The translations under genes were made by a program, and so were the position numbers. Below, in pieces: positions 37,661 through 54,120 of a stretch of 64,000 nucleotides of DNA (its first letter is position 1; each line of letters starts with the position of its first letter). The notes under the pieces were generated by a model. It ran no database searches, was not told the origin of the DNA, and saw only the letters and a program-made list of their open reading frames with translations. This DNA comes from an uncultured Bacteroidales bacterium (GTDB lineage: Bacteria; Bacteroidota; Bacteroidia; Bacteroidales; UBA3824): positions 9,029 to 73,028 of the forward strand of contig CAMOSO010000072.1 of assembly GCA_946624925.1 (NCBI GenBank), written 5' to 3'.

Positions 37661-38482
37661 ATGAAAAACATTAACTTGTTGATAAATAGTTGTTTGATTG
37701 TAGCCACTATACTATGTTCGTGTAGCGGCAACCAAACTCGTTCTCAAAACACAGCACAAAATAACAACAACGATTACTATGTTAATATGCAATTTGTGGA
37801 GGAGTTGCAAAAGACAGTTTTCTCAATTGATGAAAATACAGATTGGAATAAGCCATTGTATTCAATTGGAGAAGATAATGATACAATCGAAAAATGGACT
37901 TATCTCAGTACAGACAGCGGATTATGCGTCATTCATAAAGTGCTACCTGGCTCATTTTATAGAGAAGAAATGGACAAAACAATATATGACAAAAGTAATC
38001 GCCTTATCGCCAAAGAGATAAGTAATAAAAATGGCATTTACTTCACCATAAAATATTATTACGATGGAAACGTTAGAATCGGCAATGGGAAAAGGAACTT
38101 GGGATGCTATGACGTCGATGTAAAGGAGATTGCTTACTTTTTAGACAGTTCATTCAAATATGATACATTAACTCAATCATTTATGGGAGTTAATGATGTT
38201 TCAATGGAAATAACAGATTATCAAAAATCAAAATACGAAAAGATTGGGAACGAATACAGAATTGTTGAGAAACGTTTTTACTCAGCCCCCAATGACACAG
38301 TTTCATTTAAAATAGTAGACAAGCGCATTTACAGGTATAATTCTCAGAATCTTCTTGTAGGAGAATGCGATAGGAATGCGGGTGAATACGGGACTAAAAG
38401 ATTCTATTACAAAGATAACACTATGGAATGGGGCAATACAGGAGTGGGGGCAACGATTTATTATGACAAAAAAAATGAGTAA
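37661..38482 (+). CDS. Hypothetical lipoprotein
   Basis: Start trimmed to the lipoprotein signal MKNINLLINSCLIVATILCSC. No family recognised. Confidence 0.55.
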   Translation: MKNINLLINSCLIVATILCSCSGNQTRSQNTAQNNNNDYYVNMQFVEELQKTVFSIDENTDWNKPLYSIGEDNDTIEKWTYLSTDSGLCVIHKVLPGSFYREEMDKTIYDKSNRLIAKEISNKNGIYFTIKYYYDGNVRIGNGKRNLGCYDVDVKEIAYFLDSSFKYDTLTQSFMGVNDVSMEITDYQKSKYEKIGNEYRIVEKRFYSAPNDTVSFKIVDKRIYRYNSQNLLVGECDRNAGEYGTKRFYYKDNTMEWGNTGVGATIYYDKKNE

Positions 38483-39689
38483 CACAACAAAAATAGGAAC
38501 TGAATTCGAAAACAAGATTTTCGATATATTTTCATCCTTGCTTAACAAGGATGAAGTACCTAATGCGTCAAAAAAATATTCCAAAATATTTAAACATAAA
38601 AAATATAAGTGTTCCAATACAAGTAGAACGATTGACTTTGAAATAACAATAGAAAATTACAATCCTTATATAAATACTGACACTTGGAGTTCTTTGATTG
38701 TGATAGAATGTAAGAATTATACTAATAAGGTTGATATTTCAGATTTAGATGAGTTTAGTAAAAAAATAAGCCTAATATCGACATCGGCAATTAAAGGAAT
38801 ATTTGTAACTACTGTTGGATTTTCTCAAACTGAAATTGAACAAGCACAAAGCGAACATATTGCACTTATTGTTGCAAACCCGAGCGGTGATTTGAAATGG
38901 TTGGTTAGTAGAGATTTGAATAAATATCCTGAACAATTGTGGGAGTTCTTAATAGGTAATGCTAAAACAGATGGGCGACCTGTTGTTTATGATGATAATA
39001 GGTTCACGAATATTGAGGATATTCTTTTGAAATACGGGGCTGCGGTTTCATTCAACAATGTTATTATTCCATACATTACAGAGGATGATTTGAAAAAGAA
39101 AGTCGATGAATTGTGTTCAACGTATAAATTAGGCAATGATAAAGCCGGCGAACTATTGGTCAAAGCATTTCCTTCATATAGGGTAGATTTCGTAGATATG
39201 CCATACGGTGTATTATGCCATTTGGACCTAAAAAGTGAAGTAATTTATATTTCAAATTCAATAATTAATGATTTTCATAGAATGAATTTTACATTAGCGC
39301 ACGAATTAGGGCATCTAATTTTGCACGTTCCTCTTTTTCAAAAAATGGAAGGACAATTTGATGATTTTGAAAGACTTATCATTGCATTACCTGAGACTAA
39401 ACGGAAAAGAATGGAAATGCAAGCTGATTTATTCGCCTCATATTTATTGATCAAACAAGATGTTCTAATGAAAGAAGTCGCTCGATTGTTCACACAGTTT
39501 AGTGTTACAAAAGGCAGATTATATCTTGATAATCAAAGATGTAACATTTCATTAGTTAATTCAATTGTTAATCAACTTTCGACTATATTTAATGTATCAA
39601 AGGAGGCTATAAAAGTACGTTTGCAAAAGGAAAATTTATTGGTTGTTAGTAATAATTATAGTCCACAAAGAATGGAACGTTATTTCTAA
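38463..39689 (+). CDS. Fusion protein: N-terminal Mrr-like PD-(D/E)xK restriction-endonuclease fold plus C-terminal ImmA/IrrE (M78) zinc metallopeptidase
   Basis: GTEFENKIF...IDFEI...LIVIECKNY...GIFVTTVGFSQTEIEQAQ (Mrr_cat pattern). LAHELGHLILH (HExxH) and MQADLFASYLL (ImmA/IrrE pattern). The start overlaps the preceding lipoprotein gene by 20 nt. Confidence 0.7.
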   Translation: MTKKMSNTTKIGTEFENKIFDIFSSLLNKDEVPNASKKYSKIFKHKKYKCSNTSRTIDFEITIENYNPYINTDTWSSLIVIECKNYTNKVDISDLDEFSKKISLISTSAIKGIFVTTVGFSQTEIEQAQSEHIALIVANPSGDLKWLVSRDLNKYPEQLWEFLIGNAKTDGRPVVYDDNRFTNIEDILLKYGAAVSFNNVIIPYITEDDLKKKVDELCSTYKLGNDKAGELLVKAFPSYRVDFVDMPYGVLCHLDLKSEVIYISNSIINDFHRMNFTLAHELGHLILHVPLFQKMEGQFDDFERLIIALPETKRKRMEMQADLFASYLLIKQDVLMKEVARLFTQFSVTKGRLYLDNQRCNISLVNSIVNQLSTIFNVSKEAIKVRLQKENLLVVSNNYSPQRMERYF

Positions 39690-40231
39690 AACACTAATTC
39701 CGAATCGTCAGGAAAAACAACTATTACATCAGCCTTAAAAAAACGTTTGTCCCATACACACAACTGCACCGGCAAATCTTCGTCCGAATAGGCAGGACTG
39801 TTTGAAGCAAATTGAATTTTGTGTATTACCGGAGCACATTCCATCGCTAACATCCTAATAGCGAAAAAATTGTTCATAAATTCGGATGTGCTTTTCAATG
39901 CGTTGATTACATCTTGTGCGTAAATTGTGTTGCTTACTTTTTTGCGAGATGCGAATTCTTTTGCTAATACAATCCGCGTATCGGTATATTCTTTGCTATG
40001 GTTTGTGTCAAACATATCAAACAAATGGAAATTTTTGTCGTATTCAGTTTTGCAAATCATATAATTATTTTTGTAACGACTTTTTCCCCACCAATGCGCA
40101 CGGTCGATGCTCGAATCCCAAAAGTAGTAACCATAACCCAACCAAGCGTTTTGGTCACTACTCCAATGTGGAATTTCATCTTCGTCTGCGGTATATTCCA
40201 ATGCTTGATATATGGTACAAAAGGAAGACAT
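39686..40231 (-). CDS. ORFan, 181 aa (third gene of the SecB-like operon; candidate effector/toxin)
   Basis: No confident family. IPHWSS...GYGYYFWDSSIDRAHWWG only faintly recalls the YHGS...G.GFY...A..WA core of DUF3990/ART-like folds. Its stop overlaps the convergent stop of 38463-39689. Confidence 0.55.
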   Translation of the reverse strand: MSSFCTIYQALEYTADEDEIPHWSSDQNAWLGYGYYFWDSSIDRAHWWGKSRYKNNYMICKTEYDKNFHLFDMFDTNHSKEYTDTRIVLAKEFASRKKVSNTIYAQDVINALKSTSEFMNNFFAIRMLAMECAPVIHKIQFASNSPAYSDEDLPVQLCVWDKRFFKADVIVVFPDDSELVF

Positions 40232-40234
40232 AAT

Positions 40235-40645
40235 TTATTTTTCTGAGGTGTTTTTTATCAAAACATCTTTCAATGACGATAAATTCATCGTAGGCAAAAT
40301 GATAGGTTTATAATTGGCTTGTAAAGTCAGCGAACTTACAAATGCCCTAATATAAGGATACATAATGGCAATACTATTGGCATAAAAGAAATGCGGAATA
40401 TCGTTTATGTTATCCACCGCATCTGAAAATTTAAACAAGGAAACAACTTTTAGTGCAATAACTTCTTTGTCTTTGTCGGAATCCTTGGCTGTAAATAAAA
40501 TAGAAAGCCAATATTCTCGTTTTTTTGCATCAAATATGCCTCTCGGCTCCAATTTACCTATACTAAGCACCTTGGGTTCCGAATCCAAATCCAACATTAC
40601 TTTTGAAAAGTTGAAACTTTCCAACGAAAACATTGCTTTCTCCAT
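40235..40645 (-). CDS. SecB-like chaperone
   Basis: The pattern aligns to SecB: FSLESFNFSKVMLDLD ~ FQIQRIYTKDISFEAP; YWLSILFTAK...ALKVVSLFKF ~ YEVVLRVTVTA...LCEVQQGGIFSI; ANSIAIMYPYIRAFVSSLTLQANYKPIILPTMNLSSL ~ [35 protein letters not shown]. Confidence 0.6.
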   Translation of the reverse strand: MEKAMFSLESFNFSKVMLDLDSEPKVLSIGKLEPRGIFDAKKREYWLSILFTAKDSDKDKEVIALKVVSLFKFSDAVDNINDIPHFFYANSIAIMYPYIRAFVSSLTLQANYKPIILPTMNLSSLKDVLIKNTSEK

Positions 40646-44445: not shown

Positions 44446-46089
44446 CTACACGAAATCGCGCTTTGATTTTGATTTCAAATCATTTATTACACCAATCATA
44501 TAATCAATAGATTGTTTTATCAATTCAATATTGTCAAACTTGCTATTTAAAGGATGCGGATGGTCTATTTGATTACGTACACAATAAGGCAGAGAACGCT
44601 CTTGAATAACGAATCGCTTTTCGGGCAATGTTTCCTTATCGTTCCTAATTATTGGTTCTTCTTTTTTACCTATACGATAAAACTTTTCTATCCTTAAATT
44701 CGCCTTATAATTTGTTTTTAAATAATCGTCAATTTGTTCCAAACTATATGTAGCACTGTTTCTCTCATTTATCAATCGATGCATATAACCAAATAATTCA
44801 ATATGAAATTCTATTGAACCTTCAGCAAAGGCAATATAGTTAATTTCGTTCATTGAAACGTAATTGTTGTTGTATTTTAAAACACGTTCAGCCACATCAA
44901 TTCTTTCTGTACTGCCATTCGTTTGTTTCAAAACAATACACTTCACACCTTCTTTTTCTTTCGCTAATTCTTTAACAATAAATGGCGAATGGGTCGTTAT
45001 AATAACTTGGTGTATTTTTGATAGATTTTTTAATGTTTCATACATTTTGCGCTGTTCATTTGGGTGCAAATGTGTTTCAGGTTCTTCAAAACCCATAATA
45101 ACAGTTTGATTAGAATTAAATTTGGGGTCAGACAACAATCTAAATATAGCATTCTTGACATTTGTCTGAAACCCCTCTCCTCTGTGCTGTAAAGGTATTC
45201 CACCATTCGTCATTAATATATCATTTGCTAGAATGTCGACGTCACTATTTTCAACGAATCTAAAACTTTCGTTTGATTTAAGAAACTCGTTTGATAATTG
45301 GGCGGCGATTTTATTCCTCGAAGAAATAACCCTCCGTTGAAGTTCGAAATAATCTTGTCGCAACAATAGTTTAATGTACCCATCAATAGTATCAGTAGTA
45401 CGTTGTAATCTGAATAGTTCTGAGAACTTACTGCACATTAGTTTGTCATAATCGAATCCAATATATTTCTCTTTCCTTTTAGATGTATTGTTTCGGCAAT
45501 ACTTGAATAAATCATCGCATATTTTTTCACTCTCCTCATGATATTCATTAAGAACTTTACGTTTAGAAGTGTTATTTAAATTAAATGATAAATGTTTTTC
45601 TCGTAGTGTATTAATGTCTATTTTAGAAAAAATATTGCCAATTTCATCGAAATAATATGCCTTTATTTCATACACATTAGGTTTTGTTCCTGATCTGTAA
45701 TTATTCCATGATAATGGATTTACCAATTGTTTTTTTATACAAATACAATCATCCTCTATAAAGTCTTTTACAAAATAATGTGTTTTTAAACTGCCAAAAG
45801 AGTTTACGTTTACGCATTGTATCATTTCATCCATTTCTCCCGTGAAAATAATTTCCACAGAAAATTCTCCATCGTCTCCAAAAATAGAATCTGATTGATT
45901 TTTTCTTATTGTATCATAATTAAAATCATAACCGTCAAATTCTCTTTGCCCGAAAAACCACTCCAATGCAACAAATATAGTAGATTTACCCACATCATTT
46001 TTGCCTACGATGCAGTTAAAATCATCAAAATCAATTTCAACGTGTTTGTATGCGCGGAAATTGGTTAATATCATTTTCTTGATTTTCAT
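44446..46089 (-). CDS. AAA_15/OLD-type ABC-like ATPase with a C-terminal domain carrying an Rx4H motif; no Toprim domain seen
   Basis: Start trimmed to MKIKKMILTNFRAYKHVEIDF...IVGKNDVGKSTIF (Walker A). ...GFEEPETHLHP (Walker B/D-loop), ITTHSP. C-terminus ...CVRNQIDHPHP. Confidence 0.7.
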   Translation of the reverse strand: MKIKKMILTNFRAYKHVEIDFDDFNCIVGKNDVGKSTIFVALEWFFGQREFDGYDFNYDTIRKNQSDSIFGDDGEFSVEIIFTGEMDEMIQCVNVNSFGSLKTHYFVKDFIEDDCICIKKQLVNPLSWNNYRSGTKPNVYEIKAYYFDEIGNIFSKIDINTLREKHLSFNLNNTSKRKVLNEYHEESEKICDDLFKYCRNNTSKRKEKYIGFDYDKLMCSKFSELFRLQRTTDTIDGYIKLLLRQDYFELQRRVISSRNKIAAQLSNEFLKSNESFRFVENSDVDILANDILMTNGGIPLQHRGEGFQTNVKNAIFRLLSDPKFNSNQTVIMGFEEPETHLHPNEQRKMYETLKNLSKIHQVIITTHSPFIVKELAKEKEGVKCIVLKQTNGSTERIDVAERVLKYNNNYVSMNEINYIAFAEGSIEFHIELFGYMHRLINERNSATYSLEQIDDYLKTNYKANLRIEKFYRIGKKEEPIIRNDKETLPEKRFVIQERSLPYCVRNQIDHPHPLNSKFDNIELIKQSIDYMIGVINDLKSKSKRDFV

Positions 46090-46294
46090 TGGCGTTGTGT
46101 TGTTTTTGCTTAACTTTGCAAAAGTAACACATAATAAATGAACTTGCAAATTTTTTTTCGCAAAAAATATCACAATTATCGACTAATTGCCTCCCTAATA
46201 AAAGAATTAATCGCTTTCGCGAATGTGCAAGATGTTTTTTGCGGCAGTGGTTTGTGGAAAGAAAAAATATTTCTATCTTTGCGACATCTTAAAT

Positions 46295-46388
46295 GCGGGA
46301 ATAGTTCAGTGGCAGTACAATATTCTGCCAACGGTTAGAACGCACATACGGTCTATGTGATACACGAGTTCGAATCTTGTTTCCCGCA
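46295..46388 (+). tRNA. Non-canonical tRNA-like RNA, copy 1 (tRNA-Gly-type acceptor and T arm; hairpin inserted in the D-loop; ACGGTCT loop at the anticodon position)
   Basis: Acceptor 46295-301/46381-87 (GCGGGAA/TTCCCGC). D-stem 46304-07/46338-41 (GTTC/GAAC). Inserted hairpin 46311-15/46325-29 (GGCAG/CTGCC). Stem 46343-47/46355-59 (CACAT/ATGTG). T arm 46364-68/46376-80 with a TTCGAAT loop. TAtcTTTG -7 box at 46274-81. No encoded CCA. Confidence 0.6.
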
Positions 46389-46412
46389 CTATTTATTTTG
46401 CGACAACAAAAT

Positions 46413-46541
46413 GCGGGAATAGCTTAGTGGCAGAGCATTATTCTGCCAATGGTTAGAGCACGCACTTATTATTTATTTTGAAAAACACGCTTCGTATAAA
46501 TAGTAAGTGCGGAGACACGAGTTCGAATCTTGTTTCCCGCT
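46413..46541 (+). tRNA. Non-canonical tRNA-like RNA, copy 2 (same scaffold; anticodon-position arm extended to a 16-bp helix with a 19-nt loop)
   Basis: Acceptor 46413-19/46534-40. D-stem GCTT 46422-25 / GAGC 46456-59. Inserted hairpin 46429-34/46442-47. Long arm 46461-76/46496-511 (CGCAC+TTATTATTTAT / ATAAATAGTAA+GTGCG). T arm 46517-33. Discriminator T. Confidence 0.6.
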
Positions 46542-51386: not shown

Positions 51387-52877
51387 ATGGCAGAAAGAAT
51401 TACAGAATTATCCGCAGACGATGCAAGGAACTTCTTCCTTAATGCGAAGTGTTATTCGACAATAGATTTGCCGAAGTACTTTGATTTTCAACCGTTGTTG
51501 GATAAGTTGTCAACAGAAATGTCAGGAATAGATTATTCAAGGATTACAAGCGATTCGCCAAGAAAATTTGACAATGTAAACTACAAATTTTACCAAAACA
51601 AGGATGGCAATTTGGCGTGGCGCAAGATGGAGATTATTAACCCTGTTTTGTATATCAAGTTGGTTGGTATTATAACAGAACCGCATAATTGGGCATTGTT
51701 GCAAACGCATTTCAAAAATTGTTCGGCAAGCGACAAAATAGAGTGTCATAGTATTCCGTTCAATTTTGAAACATCGGACATATCTGCCAATTCTGTTATC
51801 AATTGGTGGGATCGAGTTGAACAGCAATCACTTGAACTATCTCTGAAATATGAATGGCTTGCTAATACAGACATTACCGATTGTTATGGCACATTATATA
51901 CCCACACAATTGTTTGGGCATTGCATACTAAGTCTGTTGCAAAACAAAATCCAAACGATAGGTCATTGCTCGGTAATAAAATAGATACTGAGTTGGAAGA
52001 AATGAACTATCGTCAAACCAACGGTATTCCACAAGGTAGTATTTTGATGGATTTTATTGCCGAAATCGTTTTAGGTTATGCAGATACATTGTTATTGGAC
52101 AAGATAGGTAACTCAATTCCCGATTTCAAGATTCTGCGTTACAGAGACGACTACCGTATTTTCACAAAGACGAAAGAAGATGCAGTGAAAATTTTGCGTC
52201 TGTTGTCTGTGGTTCTGACTGATTTGAACTTCAAACTCAACAATCAAAAAACATTTGTAACACAAGAACTTATCACAGATGCAATTAAACCTGACAAGTT
52301 GTATTGGAACAGTGTCAAGCAAGAGGAAACATCATTGCAGAAACATTTGTTGATTATCCATAAATTGTCGAAAGAATATCCCAATTCAGGAAGCATATCA
52401 AGAGCGTTGACCGACTTTATGGGAAGAATAACGCCTAATAAAATTCAGGGACAAAATTTGGCTGTTCTTGTTGCAATCCTGACAGACATCGCCCTTCACA
52501 ATTCAAAGGTATATGCCTTGGTTGCCGCGACTATTGCAAAAATTGTTTCATACGAACCTGACAATACAAAAAAAGAGGAACTATACAAATTAGTTGCCCA
52601 AAAATTGAGTGTTCTTCCCAACATTGGCTATCTGTTGGTTTGGTTGCAACGTATGGTTATCAAAGACAACATAGTGATTGACAAATGCAACGAGGAAGAT
52701 TTATGTCAAATTGTCAACGACACAAAAAACGCCTGTGACCTTTGGAATAATTGTTGGCTTAATGATACATTCAAAAATCACATTAGAAACACGCCAATAA
52801 TCAACCGTCAGGCATTGGATTCGCTGCCATCCGTCCCCGACGACAACGAGGTGAAACTTTTTATTAACAAATACTAA
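51387..52877 (+). CDS. Stand-alone defence-type reverse transcriptase (UG/Abi class, DRT2-like architecture): N-terminal extension, RT palm/fingers, and a helical alpha-repeat-like C-terminal domain
   Basis: RT motifs TDITDCYGTLYTHTIVWALH (motifs 1/2), NGIPQGSILMDFIAEIVL (motif 4), ILRYRDDYRIFT (motif 5, YxDD) and LNFKLNNQKT (motif 6), followed by ~200 aa of helical repeats. No retron VTG/YADD context, no maturase X or endonuclease domain, and no partner effector gene. Confidence 0.85.
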   Translation: MAERITELSADDARNFFLNAKCYSTIDLPKYFDFQPLLDKLSTEMSGIDYSRITSDSPRKFDNVNYKFYQNKDGNLAWRKMEIINPVLYIKLVGIITEPHNWALLQTHFKNCSASDKIECHSIPFNFETSDISANSVINWWDRVEQQSLELSLKYEWLANTDITDCYGTLYTHTIVWALHTKSVAKQNPNDRSLLGNKIDTELEEMNYRQTNGIPQGSILMDFIAEIVLGYADTLLLDKIGNSIPDFKILRYRDDYRIFTKTKEDAVKILRLLSVVLTDLNFKLNNQKTFVTQELITDAIKPDKLYWNSVKQEETSLQKHLLIIHKLSKEYPNSGSISRALTDFMGRITPNKIQGQNLAVLVAILTDIALHNSKVYALVAATIAKIVSYEPDNTKKEELYKLVAQKLSVLPNIGYLLVWLQRMVIKDNIVIDKCNEEDLCQIVNDTKNACDLWNNCWLNDTFKNHIRNTPIINRQALDSLPSVPDDNEVKLFINKY

Positions 52878-52944
52878 AAAATGTGTAACCTTTTGGCGGA
52901 AATTGACACTAATGATTGTAAAACTAATAAATAACATACACAAA

Positions 52945-54120
52945 ATGAAAGCAAAATTTCTCATTCTCAGTTTGTTGATTGGGCTAATCAACATTGTGTC
53001 CTGTAACAACGGAAAAGATGAAAACATCCTCATCCCCGCTGGATTCGGCGACAAATGCGGTTTCATCGACAGAAACGGCAATTGGATAATCAACCCTCAA
53101 TTCACAGAAGTATACAACTTCGGTGAAAACGAATTGGCAGCAGCAAAATCCGATGACAAATGGGGATACATCGACAAACTTGGGCAATGGGTAATCAATC
53201 CTCAGTTTGACAAGGCGTACAACTTTGGAGAAAATGTATTGGCACCTGTCAAGATGGATGACAAATGGGGTTACATAGACAAGACAGGCAAATTGATTGT
53301 CAATCCGCAATTTGACAAGGCATACGCTTTCTCGAAAAACGGTTTGGCTGCCATCGAAATGGATGGCAAATGGGGATTCATCGATAAAACCGGCAAAATT
53401 GTCATAAATCTTCAATTCGATTCTGCATCAGGATTTGGCGATGATGAATTGTCTGGTGTAAAATTGAACGACTTATGGGGATACATTGACAAAACTGGTA
53501 AAATATTAATCAATCCTCAATTTGACGATGTAAACGGTTTCTCAGAAAACGGATTATGCGCAGTCAAAACCAACGGCAAGTGGGGATACATCGACAAAAC
53601 CGGCAAAATGCTAATCAACCCTCAGTTTGACGAAACATACGGTTTCACTAAAAACGGACTCGCATTGGTAAAGTTGAACGACAAGTGGGGATACATTGAC
53701 AATTCTGGTAAAATGGTAATCAATCCACAATTTGATGACGCTTATTATTTTGCCGAGAATGGATTGGCATCAGCCAAGGTAAACAAAAAATGGGGATTCA
53801 TTGATAAAACAGGAAAACTGATTATCAATCCGCAATTCGACCACGCAGACAGTTTTTGGGCTAATGGTTATGTAGCCGTAAAACTAAATGAGAAATGGGG
53901 CTGCATTGACAAGACTGGCAAAATAATCATTAATCCTCAGTATGACGACGTACTTGTACACAAGGACATTATTTTCGTCGGACAAAAGAAGGACGGAAGA
54001 AAATACGAAGACCCGAAATGGGGAATTGTTGACAAAGAAGGTAATGTAGTTGCAATTCCTCAGTTCGACTGGGTAATTGATTCTTACTGCAACTATAATC
54101 ATTCGTGGTTTAACGACTAA
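52945..54120 (+). CDS. WG-repeat (KWG) lipoprotein
   Basis: Lipobox INIVSC. About 11 copies of DKWGYIDKTGK..INPQFD.A..F.ENGLA.VK. Confidence 0.8.
   Translation: MKAKFLILSLLIGLINIVSCNNGKDENILIPAGFGDKCGFIDRNGNWIINPQFTEVYNFGENELAAAKSDDKWGYIDKLGQWVINPQFDKAYNFGENVLAPVKMDDKWGYIDKTGKLIVNPQFDKAYAFSKNGLAAIEMDGKWGFIDKTGKIVINLQFDSASGFGDDELSGVKLNDLWGYIDKTGKILINPQFDDVNGFSENGLCAVKTNGKWGYIDKTGKMLINPQFDETYGFTKNGLALVKLNDKWGYIDNSGKMVINPQFDDAYYFAENGLASAKVNKKWGFIDKTGKLIINPQFDHADSFWANGYVAVKLNEKWGCIDKTGKIIINPQYDDVLVHKDIIFVGQKKDGRKYEDPKWGIVDKEGNVVAIPQFDWVIDSYCNYNHSWFND

Follow-up and report, generated by a model that had tools for sequence, protein, structure and literature searches.

Non-decoding RNAs resembling glycine tRNA, with a helix in the D loop, form an apparent conserved family in rumen Bacteroidales

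Results

Two tRNA-Gly-like genes in tandem

The window analysed here is a 64,000-nucleotide stretch of DNA from an uncultured Bacteroidales bacterium, in which we confirmed two adjacent tRNA-Gly-like genes of 94 and 129 nt. A sequence-only reading had earlier described both copies, and all of its statements about their sequence were borne out when the letters were read again. The features of the locus are as follows (window coordinates).

46251-46254, + strand: TTTG, the -33 element of a promoter of Bacteroidetes type, with 19 nt between it and the -7 element; the layout recurs before array-leading genes in relatives
46274-46281, + strand: TATCTTTG, a -7 element of consensus TAnnTTTG whose end lies 13 nt ahead of where mature copy 1 begins
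46295-46388, + strand: copy 1, a type A tRNA-like RNA gene of 94 nt (Rfam tRNA 41.8 bits, MFE fold, scaffold parse)
46311-46329, + strand: D-loop hairpin of copy 1, GGCAG-TACAATATT-CTGCC, with AACGG (G18-G19 equivalents) directly after it
46343-46359, + strand: CACAT-ACGGTCT-ATGTG, the non-decoding arm that copy 1 has at the anticodon position, with C33 and C37
46364-46380, + strand: T arm of copy 1, ACGAG-TTCGAAT-CTTGT, with A49-U65, C50-G64 and G51·U63
46389-46412, + strand: 24-nt spacer between the copies, with a relaxed -7-like TTATTTTG at 46393-46400; probably intra-operon
46413-46541, + strand: copy 2, a type B tRNA-like RNA gene of 129 nt (Rfam tRNA 43.6 bits, MFE -49 kcal/mol, nine distinct type-B homologues)
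46429-46447, + strand: D-loop hairpin of copy 2, GGCAGAG-CATTA-TTCTGCC, from the fold and the family comparison
46461-46511, + strand: long arm that copy 2 has in place of an anticodon arm; CGCAC and 11 A-U/G-U pairs make up its 16-bp helix, which 19 nt cap and which 9 of 9 type-B sequences retain
46517-46533, + strand: T arm of copy 2, from the scaffold parse

Copy 1 combines the acceptor stem GCGGGAA/TTCCCGC with the D stem GTTC/GAAC and a discriminator A, and CCA is not encoded. Copy 2 shares this scaffold but has the D stem GCTT/GAGC and a discriminator T. Exact matches to AGTGGCAG-N5-15-CTGCCAANGGTTAGA are found at two places in the window, where 0 would be expected. Both copies have an acceptor stem of 7 bp and a T stem of 5 bp closed by a 7-nt T loop (UUCRANY). 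The D loop departs from the canonical form (about 7-11 unpaired nt) in that a 19-nt hairpin lies inside it in both copies, the corresponding range being 16-71 nt across the family. Also absent is a canonical anticodon arm (5-bp stem, 7-nt loop, U33, purine 37): copy 1 presents the loop ACGGUCU and copy 2 its capped 16-bp helix.

Fold and fit to tRNA models

Minimum free energy folds give the architecture with a hairpin in the D loop, with z = -2.8 for copy 1 and -6.0 for copy 2 relative to shuffles, and the G·U pairs on which it draws (G51·U63, U13·G22 and those of the long helix) are possible on the + strand only. Both copies score above the gathering score of 29 of the Rfam tRNA model (RF00005) and below the 57-66 bits of canonical tRNA-Gly genes of relatives. 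ARAGORN calls copy 1 only in the window, taking it for a tRNA-Trp(cca) whose extra arm is long, and reports the same tRNA for type A and most type-D relatives. Neither program, both of which the sequence-only reading had proposed as checks, returned a canonical tRNA with a known intron type.

The tRNA-Trp(cca) call is best regarded as an artefact, since the stem around the loop is unpaired throughout, D-stem covariation follows the other register and CUCCAA takes the loop's place in type D. On the same grounds we reject the alternative fold in which CTGCCAA, a perfect Gly-GCC anticodon loop in sequence, would serve as the anticodon loop: its flanking stem is unpaired in every member. The D-loop-hairpin fold, which had been preferred from the letters of the two copies, is instead upheld by D-stem covariation and by the deletion of a hairpin base pair in homologues. 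Removing the D-loop hairpin restores no anticodon loop, as copy 1 is then still left with ACGGUCU without U33.

A family in one lineage of rumen Bacteroidales

A search for homologues, which had also been called for, showed that the locus is not a one-off. Members were gathered with a scaffold regular expression and the Rfam tRNA model, type C scoring under the Rfam gathering threshold, and 28 distinct sequences from the pattern scans fit one scaffold. The homologues come from 8 other rumen Bacteroidales MAGs (species-level; yak, goat, sheep and red deer gut) and from 13 metagenome stretches. The family has no separate Rfam entry, is young with closely related sequences, and is confined to one rumen Bacteroidales lineage that corresponds roughly to a genus. 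These comparisons indicate a glycine-tRNA look-alike family that is conserved in rumen Bacteroidales and appears to be previously undescribed.

No family member was found at the carB–HAD loci of the relatives L026-L028 or at the suf loci of the more distant relatives L033-L038 (SufD at most 65% identical), and a pattern match in a deltaproteobacterial MAG (L003) is a chance match within a coding region. No member turned up in phage and plasmid collections searched by blastn or in viral contigs scanned twice for the pattern, which speaks against a phage or plasmid origin. When all long inserts were compared by blastn with the window and loci (about 200 kb), they matched family members only, some of them truncated at contig ends; within that sample a dispersed palindromic element (MITE/REP-like) in a tRNA pseudogene can be set aside, the inserts being seen solely inside family members.

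Conservation of scaffold and helices

All 28 sequences keep the acceptor pairs G1-C72, C2-G71 and G3-C70 of canonical tRNA-Gly, the T-stem pair C50-G64 and the GG of the D loop (in AAYGG). The T arm is identical in 26 of the 28, and the 24-nt 3' end is identical in all members. Types B and D and most type-C members have U as the discriminator, and most type-A sequences have A. What is retained of a tRNA is the acceptor stem, the T arm, U8, A14, the D-loop GG and the D stem, and the true anticodon loop is replaced by unrelated hairpins. Across the family the anticodon position holds loops like ACGGUCU, a CUUG tetraloop or 16-17-bp helices, with at least six different stem sequences, all of which pair; the orthologue of copy 1 in other species carries a different arm hairpin, CCAAGC-CUUG-GCUGG. 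Both the proposed derivation from tRNA-Gly(GCC) and the division into a constant scaffold and a variable arm hold up across the 28 homologues. Gene conversion among paralogues could contribute to the uniformity of the scaffold. The fully invariant Gly-type acceptor stem is also compatible with a charged-RNA role.

Compensatory change is seen in several helices. Pair 2 of the D stem is C-G in 17 and U-A in 11 of the 28 sequences, and pair 4 is either C-G or U·G. In the D-loop hairpin GGCAG pairs with CUGCC or, in subtype D, GGAG with CUCC, a whole base pair having been lost. Among the nine sequences of the type-B long helix there are double changes from G-C to A-U and from U-A to A-U, together with three changes from U-A to U·G. 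Most scaffold pairs yield no covariation signal because they never vary, and the type-C D-loop extension was not counted as covariation, since its two variants preserve a long helix by shifting register while the 3' strand stays unchanged.

The RNAs also evolve slowly. Relative to the window copy, the type-B RNA has diverged by 0.8% in L012, 3.9% in L002 and 13% in L008, where the four-fold degenerate sites of carB differ by 19%, 39% and 48%, respectively, so that the RNA changes roughly 4-25 times more slowly. In L012 the array spacer differs at 3 of 24 positions and the flanking type-B RNA at 1 of 129. D-stem covariation, deletion of the hairpin pair, compensation in the long arm and the slow rate together bear out the earlier suggestion that selection acts on structure and that the copies are not decaying.

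Promoters and array organisation

The exact sequence TAnnTTTG, which we take to be the -7 consensus of Bacteroides promoters, ends 12-13 nt before +1 in almost all array-leading and cassette-flanked genes of the carB locus, and 9-17 nt before it elsewhere. In the window a full promoter, with its 19-nt spacer, precedes copy 1. The idea that each copy has its own promoter stands for this first gene of the array but not for copy 2, which has only a relaxed -7-like element and begins 24 nt after copy 1, so the two are probably co-transcribed. In L005 and L010 an RNA of the family lies 34-38 nt downstream of a canonical tRNA-Gly(GCC) without a promoter of its own. The canonical tRNA-Gly genes beside family RNAs likewise have no encoded CCA and share the same C-U-rich trailer. 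The conserved promoters suggest that the RNAs are expressed.

Genomic neighbourhood

Arrays either adjoin canonical tRNA-Gly genes or occupy a hot spot between carB and HAD that holds varying toxin-antitoxin or defence cassettes: an AriA-like ATPase with HipBA in the window, and RelE-like pairs, an OLD-like ATPase, an IetA-like ATPase or PDC-S27 in relatives. Arrays elsewhere have tRNA-Gly, sufCD and proS, or an aminotransferase gene as neighbours, and defence genes are absent nearby. RelE-type cassettes begin about 10 nt past the 3' end of the preceding RNA gene, be it of type A, B or C2, and L017 has a degraded type-A copy (30.6 bits) at the opposite end of one of these cassettes. In L026, whose carB is 92% identical, HAD, ATPase and carB are present and the array is absent; because so close a relative lacks it at this locus, the RNAs appear to be accessory and not essential.

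No integrase gene adjoins any array, nor does a gene for a Fem-type or other aminoacyl-tRNA transferase. The layout of a type III toxin-antitoxin system, in which tandem RNA repeats immediately precede a co-oriented gene for a toxin endoribonuclease, was not encountered, the downstream genes being convergent or unrelated and varying by genome. Antisense regulation of nearby genes was considered and rejected: in RNAduplex comparisons with the 78 start regions that the window contains, four loop or arm probes did no better than their shuffled versions.

Discussion

A tRNA core as a possible chassis

The interpretation that we favour, and to which we would give about even weight, is that these are expressed, non-decoding tRNA-like RNAs whose tRNA core serves as a processing and folding chassis for two variable helices; it is the pattern of conservation that points to such a chassis. 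As to origin, the sequence suggests that the part of a tRNA-Gly gene running from D loop to anticodon loop was duplicated within the gene. In the first of the two resulting segments, the former G18-G19-C-A-G22 would pair with the former anticodon-loop C-U-G-C-C, and the hairpin so formed would now lie in the D loop belonging to the second D arm, which is the functional one. Transcription would start from a Bacteroidetes -33/-7 promoter in tRNA-type operons of 1-3 genes, sometimes downstream of a canonical tRNA-Gly, and maturation presumably follows that of a CCA-less tRNA, with RNase P cleavage, 3' trimming and CCA addition giving an L shape. The core would then be a constant platform for processing, stability and recognition, and the two displayed helices (16-71 nt in the D loop and 15-51 nt in the arm) are proposed to be the evolving, ligand-binding parts of RNAs that act outside decoding.

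A rather unlikely extension of this proposal is that the family represents a third architectural class of tRNA-shaped adaptor, in which the D loop of an L-shaped core sends out a helix at the elbow and the "anticodon" arm is free and exchangeable. Such an adaptor may be matured, and perhaps aminoacylated, like tRNA-Gly, and might work off the ribosome as a natural tRNA chassis able to evolve, with its two modular helices recruiting a defence or toxin protein, a transferase or another RNA.

Other explanations

Alternatively, the RNAs may be glycine carriers that GlyRS charges through the unchanged acceptor stem and that escape EF-Tu and the ribosome to donate glycine to a transferase, in the way that staphylococci use their non-proteinogenic tRNA-Gly for the cell wall. 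The acceptor pairs and C50-G64 common to all 28 sequences, along with the discriminator U of types B, D and most of C, fit this idea, but most type-A sequences have A at that position, and the major GlyRS determinants C35 and C36 are absent from the arm at the anticodon position, which has no 7-nt loop presenting GCC or UCC and retains no glycine anticodon. The T stem has changed from GU/CG/GC to AU/CG/GU, for which an additive rule (PMC3239215, Table 2) predicts EF-Tu binding weaker by about 1.2 kcal/mol (+0.1 kcal/mol for the family versus -1.1 for the canonical tRNA-Gly of L005). This recalls the non-proteinogenic tRNA-Gly of staphylococci, extra tRNA-Gly paralogues beside normal ones that are used off the ribosome and set apart by weak EF-Tu binding through T-stem changes (PMC4574755). 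The staphylococcal species, however, keep a normal cloverleaf with a UCC anticodon and lose G18-G19 (to UU or CU) (PMC4574755), whereas the present RNAs do the opposite, keeping the GG, losing the anticodon loop and gaining a D-loop helix. Since no aminoacyl-tRNA transferase gene, such as the Fem-type one of the staphylococcal case, adjoins the arrays and the large covarying helices would be left unaccounted for, we consider a glycine carrier improbable.

We are similarly doubtful that the RNAs are decoys or regulators of a protein that binds tRNA-Gly by its acceptor and T arm or by the elbow, for instance a toxin, defence nuclease, modification enzyme or synthetase. Such a role would make the RNA a function of the defence or toxin-antitoxin island. 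The position of the carB–HAD arrays among changing cassettes is suggestive here, as are their presence/absence polymorphism, which resembles that of accessory genes, and the strong conservation of the RNAs wherever they occur. However, no single protein family co-occurs with them, the copies beside tRNA-Gly, sufCD and proS, or the aminotransferase gene have no defence gene, and the island position may merely reflect a recombination hot spot.

That the genes make no functional RNA, being decaying tRNA-Gly duplicates or repeats that act as recombination or integration sites for cassettes, strikes us as very unlikely. The start of RelE-type cassettes just after an RNA gene and the degraded copy in L017 are what such sites might leave behind, and the identical 24-nt 3' end could promote recombination. 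Against this, the RNAs evolve more slowly than both the four-fold degenerate sites and the array spacer, helices foreign to tRNA show double-sided compensation, promoters are conserved, integrases are missing from the vicinity, and the inserts are absent elsewhere in the sampled sequence.

A partnership with the adjacent HipA kinase or AAA ATPase, raised in the sequence-only reading, fails because orthologous arrays lack both genes, with other cassettes or tRNA-Gly and sufCD in their place. HipBA and the ATPase are two of the changing cassettes, so their link to the RNAs is not conserved. The adjacency belongs to the window only: L012 and L018 have the same A-to-B array without HipBA or ATPase, in L015 HipA is cut to a remnant of about 160 nt and the type-B RNA beside it is still 99% identical, and in L008 the place of the ATPase is taken by no more than a distant relative (23% identity over 120 aa). 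In L028 there is a HipA remnant but no tRNA-like gene. Such a partnership is highly improbable.

We give almost no credence to decoding tRNAs whose insertions are spliced as introns or whose CUGCCAA reads codons, for although ARAGORN's calls and the Gly-GCC-like loop invite the idea, the register evidence given above speaks against it, no intron family was matched at E up to 1, the inserts, one of them in the D loop where tRNA introns usually sit in the anticodon loop, are at 16-71 nt far too short for group I introns, and bulge-helix-bulge splicing is not known in bacteria.

Relation to known RNAs and significance

Several known RNAs share features with this family. tmRNA, YrlA/Y RNA and viral 3' tRNA-like structures also mimic tRNA in part for non-decoding purposes, but none of them is a tRNA-gene paralogue that lies in a tRNA operon and has its 5' and 3' acceptor ends free. 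tmRNA has tRNA-Ala-like ends with G3·U70 and an internal tag reading frame; ARAGORN finds none here, and position 3-70 is G-C. The model for YrlA/bacterial Y RNA (RF02553) gives 18.2 bits against a gathering score of 69.

The tRNA scaffold reportedly engineered by Ponchon and Dardel in 2007, in which the anticodon arm is said to be swapped for a cargo RNA, keeps the acceptor, T and D parts for processing and stability in the cell and has a structured insert at the anticodon stem, much as types B, B* and C do. Those scaffolds are artificial, whereas the present family arose naturally, evolves under selection and accepts inserts at a second site, the D loop.

Class II tRNAs, tRNA-Sec and allo-tRNAs likewise show that a tRNA core tolerates a projecting extra helix (PMC5389517, PMC7609411); there it is the variable arm (positions 44-48), or else the acceptor/T lengths are altered, and the RNAs decode. 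In our family the helix lies in the D loop and the RNAs cannot decode, and a term search of PMC7609411 brought up no account of a D-loop-inserted helix.

Closer in kind is tRNA-Other of Bacillus cereus, a tRNA-derived gene at the edge of a genomic island that has no role in translation and is proposed to be a tRNA-like element of a regulatory RNA (PMC3399842). The likeness lies in the tRNA origin, the lack of decoding and the island edge; tRNA-Other differs in being a single gene inside longer transcripts and has no sequence relationship to the present RNAs, which form a multi-member family in tRNA-type operons with a defined D-loop helix and exchangeable arms. Of the attributes of a pseudo-tRNA, the family displays derivation from a tRNA, inability to decode and retention under selection, with the promoters as the one pointer to expression.

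If the RNAs are expressed and fold as predicted, a bacterial tRNA gene can be rebuilt by internal duplication into a stable non-decoding RNA with added helices on display at two loops. Engineered tRNA scaffolds would then have a counterpart in nature, and the very short list of bacterial pseudo-tRNAs under selection would gain a clear addition. The 28 sequences also provide a test set for studying how a D-loop helix fares with RNase P, CCA addition and GlyRS, which ligands the arms bind and why the genes are sited at toxin-antitoxin and defence hot spots. On the practical side, the family misleads tRNA finders and leads to spurious tRNA-Trp calls in the annotations of rumen MAGs.

The window RNAs and their family

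The tandem tRNA-Gly-like RNAs of the window are not an accident, since their homologues form a family of 28 distinct sequences. We conclude that this family is genuine, that it is structured and subject to selection, and that it has not been described before. The two window genes are:

46295-46388, + strand: copy 1, type A, 94 nt
46413-46541, + strand: copy 2, type B, 129 nt

On re-reading of the window, the description of both copies given by the sequence-only reading proved exact. Each begins with GCGGGAA and closes with TTCCCGC and a discriminator, which is A in the first copy and T in the second; both contain U8-A9, the T arm ACGAG-TTCGAAT-CTTGT, and a D-loop hairpin built on GGCAG/CTGCC and followed by AAYGG-TTA. 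The 4-bp D stem is GTTC/GAAC in copy 1 and GCTT/GAGC in copy 2, and the anticodon position is occupied by CACAT-ACGGTCT-ATGTG in the former and by a 16-bp helix capped by a 19-nt loop in the latter. Minimum-free-energy folds reproduce this architecture (z = -2.8 and -6.0, respectively, against dinucleotide shuffles). The Rfam tRNA model aligns over the full length of each copy, scoring 41.8 and 43.6 bits where the gathering score is 29, and accommodates large insertions in the D loop or the anticodon loop; no other Rfam family has a significant match anywhere in the window. ARAGORN reported copy 1, as 'tRNA-Trp(cca)', and did not report copy 2. A 66-aa ORF from the public annotation pipeline (46138-46338, + strand) crosses the promoter into copy 1 and is almost certainly a spurious call.

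Genomes of 185,579 species, one for each, were scanned with a pattern in which acceptor and D-loop flanks were fixed and the hairpin was left free; this returned 11 stretches, 10 of which belong to eight Bacteroidales MAGs from yak, goat, sheep and red deer gut; the eleventh was rejected as a chance match within a coding region. Metagenome contigs contributed 13 further stretches under a looser pattern. No similar sequences were found in viral contigs, phage genomes or plasmids. After extraction by acceptor ends, all of the distinct sequences (28/28) parse into one scaffold, which runs from the acceptor 5' strand through UA, the D-stem 5' strand and A-R-U to a hairpin of 16-71 nt, AAYGG and UUA or AA, and then through the D-stem 3' strand, N26, an arm of 15-51 nt and a variable loop of 4-5 nt to the T arm, the acceptor 3' strand and N73.

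Table. Subtypes of the family
Type; length; distinguishing feature
A; 93-94 nt; short arm, of which two unrelated versions occur
B; 122-129 nt; A-U-rich long helix
B*; 109 nt; arm of intermediate length
C, C2; 142-161 nt; ~50-nt extension of the D-loop hairpin
D; 91 nt; GGAG/CUCC hairpin

The arm family CACAY…CGGUC is common to types A, B* and C2, and the arm CCAAGC…GCUGG to types A and C. Arms and D-loop extensions are thus combined differently among members, which indicates that modules have been exchanged between paralogues.

Fold and proposed origin of the inserted hairpin

Two folds had been offered from the sequence, one with a hairpin inserted in the D loop and one with CUGCCAA as the anticodon loop, and the homologues uphold the first. 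Covariation is seen in the D stem that encloses the hairpin: its second pair is C-G in 17 members and U-A in the other 11, and its fourth is either U·G or C-G. The hairpin pairing itself survives G·U changes, and in type D one nucleotide of the same pair is gone from each strand (GGCAG/CUGCC to GGAG/CUCC). As for the second fold, the stem flanking CUGCCAA does not pair in any member, and the sequence itself is CUCCAA in type D; CUGCCAA is therefore a relic and not a working anticodon loop, and the tRNA-Trp call is an artefact of it. The 3' partner of the alternative D stem, which lies within the hairpin loop, is not conserved (GUAC, GUGA or GGGA in type A).

The long helix of type B is retained in nine distinct sequences, with double-sided changes at two pairs (G-C to A-U and U-A to A-U) and a change from U-A to U·G at three. 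At least six unrelated stem sequences occupy the arm position across the family, all of them paired.

Comparison of type B with the canonical tRNA-Gly(GCC) genes of two other loci, L005 and L010, bears on the origin of this architecture. The 5' part of type B can still be recognised as positions 1-38 of tRNA-Gly: the D arm is GCUU-AGUGGCA-GAGC, A26 and a degenerate stem strand follow, and then comes the loop CUGCCAA. From there the sequence restarts from the D loop (UGGUUA-GAGC-A-CGCAC). The arrangement looks like an internal duplication of approximately positions 17-38 of tRNA-Gly.

Selection on the RNAs

The earlier suggestion that selection acts on structure is borne out by the double-sided changes in type B and by RNA divergence below that of four-fold degenerate sites in carB.

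Table. Divergence from the window copy at three related loci
Locus; carB four-fold degenerate sites; type-B RNA
L012; 19%; 0.8%
L002; 39%; 3.9%
L008; 48%; 13%

Arm aside, the type-A scaffold is essentially unchanged among relatives. Between the window and L012, the 24-nt intergenic spacer of the array differs at 3/24 positions and the promoter region is ~86% identical. Since both are more diverged than the RNAs, the low divergence is specific to RNA-coding nucleotides, and recent transfer of the whole block does not account for it.

Promoters and maturation signals

At the carB locus, almost all array-leading or cassette-flanked genes have an exact TAnnTTTG whose last base lies 12-13 nt ahead of the mature 5' end, and at other loci this distance is 9-17 nt; the exceptions to this placement are one copy at locus L017 and locus L025. 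TTTG/TAnnTTTG is the Bacteroidetes promoter consensus of the Bacteroides literature. In the window copy TTTG lies 19 nt upstream, and the layout is alike in relatives. Internal array genes start after 20-24 nt with a relaxed motif or none, which suggests that arrays are transcribed as operons. At L005 and L010 a family RNA follows canonical tRNA-Gly(GCC) at a distance of 34-38 nt and lacks its own promoter. Neither the family genes nor their canonical tRNA-Gly neighbours encode CCA, and the 3' trailers of both are C-U-rich and alike. The structure is specific to the + strand, owing to G·U pairs. From sequence features we infer that the family RNAs are expressed.

Genomic context

Family arrays occur at two kinds of locus. 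One is the carB–HAD–ApbE backbone, where carB and HAD flank the array. The array order is A then B, or A, C and then C2 or B, and variable cassettes are inserted ahead of the RNA genes, among them or behind them. The window carries an AriA-like AAA_15 ATPase and HipBA; relatives carry RelE-like toxin-antitoxin pairs, OLD-like, IetA-like and PDC-S27 ATPases, and a caspase-domain protein. RelE-type cassettes start ~10 nt past whichever RNA gene precedes them. At L017 a degraded additional type-A copy (90-183, + strand; 30.6 bits; mismatches in arm and T stem) and the intact copy stand on opposite sides of such a cassette, which suggests insertion by recombination at the RNA gene, probably promoted by the common 24-nt 3' end. 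No integrase is present at the arrays.

Housekeeping surroundings are the second setting. L005, L010 and L020 share the order tRNA-Gly(GCC) (one or two copies), A or D, sufD-sufC and then B, and stand-alone type B also adjoins an aminotransferase gene. The close relative L026 (carB 92% identical) reads HAD, DUF4143 ATPase, carB, with no array; the array is missing also from L028, which has lost it; and neither tRNA-Gly nor a look-alike occurs at the suf loci of more distant relatives (SufD <=65% identical). The family is therefore young and limited to about one genus, and a given locus can do without it.

The link to HipA or the AAA ATPase proposed by the sequence-only reading did not hold. 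Loci L012 and L018 have the A-to-B array of the window without HipBA or the ATPase, L015 keeps type B at 99% identity beside a HipA remnant, and the ATPase at the corresponding position of L008 is only distantly related to that of the window, so the association is incidental. HipA is cut to a remnant in two relatives (L015 1-374 and L028 2180-2676), with ~160 nt representing the 3' end of the gene and, in L028, 25 nt more from the opposite end. HipB is intact in both (96-99% identity), suggesting that the toxin was inactivated and the antitoxin retained.

Relation to known RNAs and proposed role

The family failed the defining tests for a decoding tRNA, an intron-containing tRNA, a tmRNA, YrlA and a type III antitoxin array, and we place it with the pseudo-tRNA or tRNA-like RNAs. 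The closest described case is the Bacillus cereus pseudo-tRNA tRNA-Other, a tRNA relic at an island border recruited as the tRNA-like element of a regulatory RNA (PMC3399842). Extra helices known so far are variable arms, as in class II tRNAs and allo-tRNAs (PMC5389517), whereas that of the family is in the D loop; the parts of a review of non-canonical natural tRNAs reached by term search (PMC7609411) contain no passage on a helix inserted there.

The acceptor stem, T arm, U8, A14, GG and D stem, on which tRNA-processing enzymes and the L-shaped fold depend, are invariant or covarying in the family. The anticodon loop is gone, and two loops bear helices that vary in length and sequence and are still paired. 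We propose that the RNAs would be produced and matured as tRNAs are and would then work off the ribosome, the tRNA core providing a chassis that confers stability and allows recognition, with the two helices as the specific parts. Among the loci compared no protein co-occurs with the RNAs, and within the window no antisense target stands out.

The main rival holds that the RNAs donate glycine, yet C35 and C36, which are major GlyRS determinants, are missing from the family, and G18-G19 is retained. Its appeal lies in the untouched Gly acceptor stem and in the change of the T stem from GU/CG/GC to AU/CG/GU, for which an additive rule predicts EF-Tu binding weaker by ~1.2 kcal/mol (PMC3239215), the same direction as in staphylococcal non-proteinogenic tRNA-Gly (PMC4574755). 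A decoy or sensor within the defence/toxin island is possible, the evidence for it being position.

Neighbouring tRNA-like and defence genes

Directly downstream of type-B RNAs lie 73-nt tRNAs that ARAGORN calls tRNA-Asn(GUU) (L010 4164-4236 and a further locus, L006 6087-6159, both - strand). The arm CAACU-UAGUUAA-GGUUG, with A33 instead of U33, is identical in the two, and their acceptor and T arms differ; the L010 gene has a tRNA-Gly-like body. A type-D RNA of L010 (6155-6245, - strand) combines the D-loop hairpin and tRNA-Gly acceptor stem with the 7-nt loop CUGUUAA, which is that of a standard Asn-GUU anticodon, on a perfect stem of 5 bp; it is the only family member that might in principle decode. 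In the suf region of a distant relative, an abiF RNA motif (L037 2457-2493, + strand; 51 bits against Rfam RF03085) precedes a DUF4160/DUF2442 gene pair and is unrelated to the tRNA-like RNAs.

Seen as a whole, the neighbourhood is a defence island. Beside the AriA-like ATPase no separate AriB-like gene was found. Genes noted here include:

38376-39689, + strand: IrrE/capP-like peptidase fused to an Mrr_cat nuclease domain
39686-40231, - strand: PD-T4-9_A-like protein (E = 5.5e-33)
40235-40645, - strand: SecB-like protein
44446-46089, - strand: the 'AAA ATPase', a full-length match to the AriA (PARIS) profile (E = 1.6e-38), with ~170 extra C-terminal residues without a domain match
51387-52877, + strand: 496-aa reverse transcriptase, a full-length match (E = 2e-181) to the PADLOC model for AbiP2, a defence-associated RT
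52903-54120, + strand: 405-aa protein of nine WG_beta_rep repeats, following the AbiP2-like reverse transcriptase
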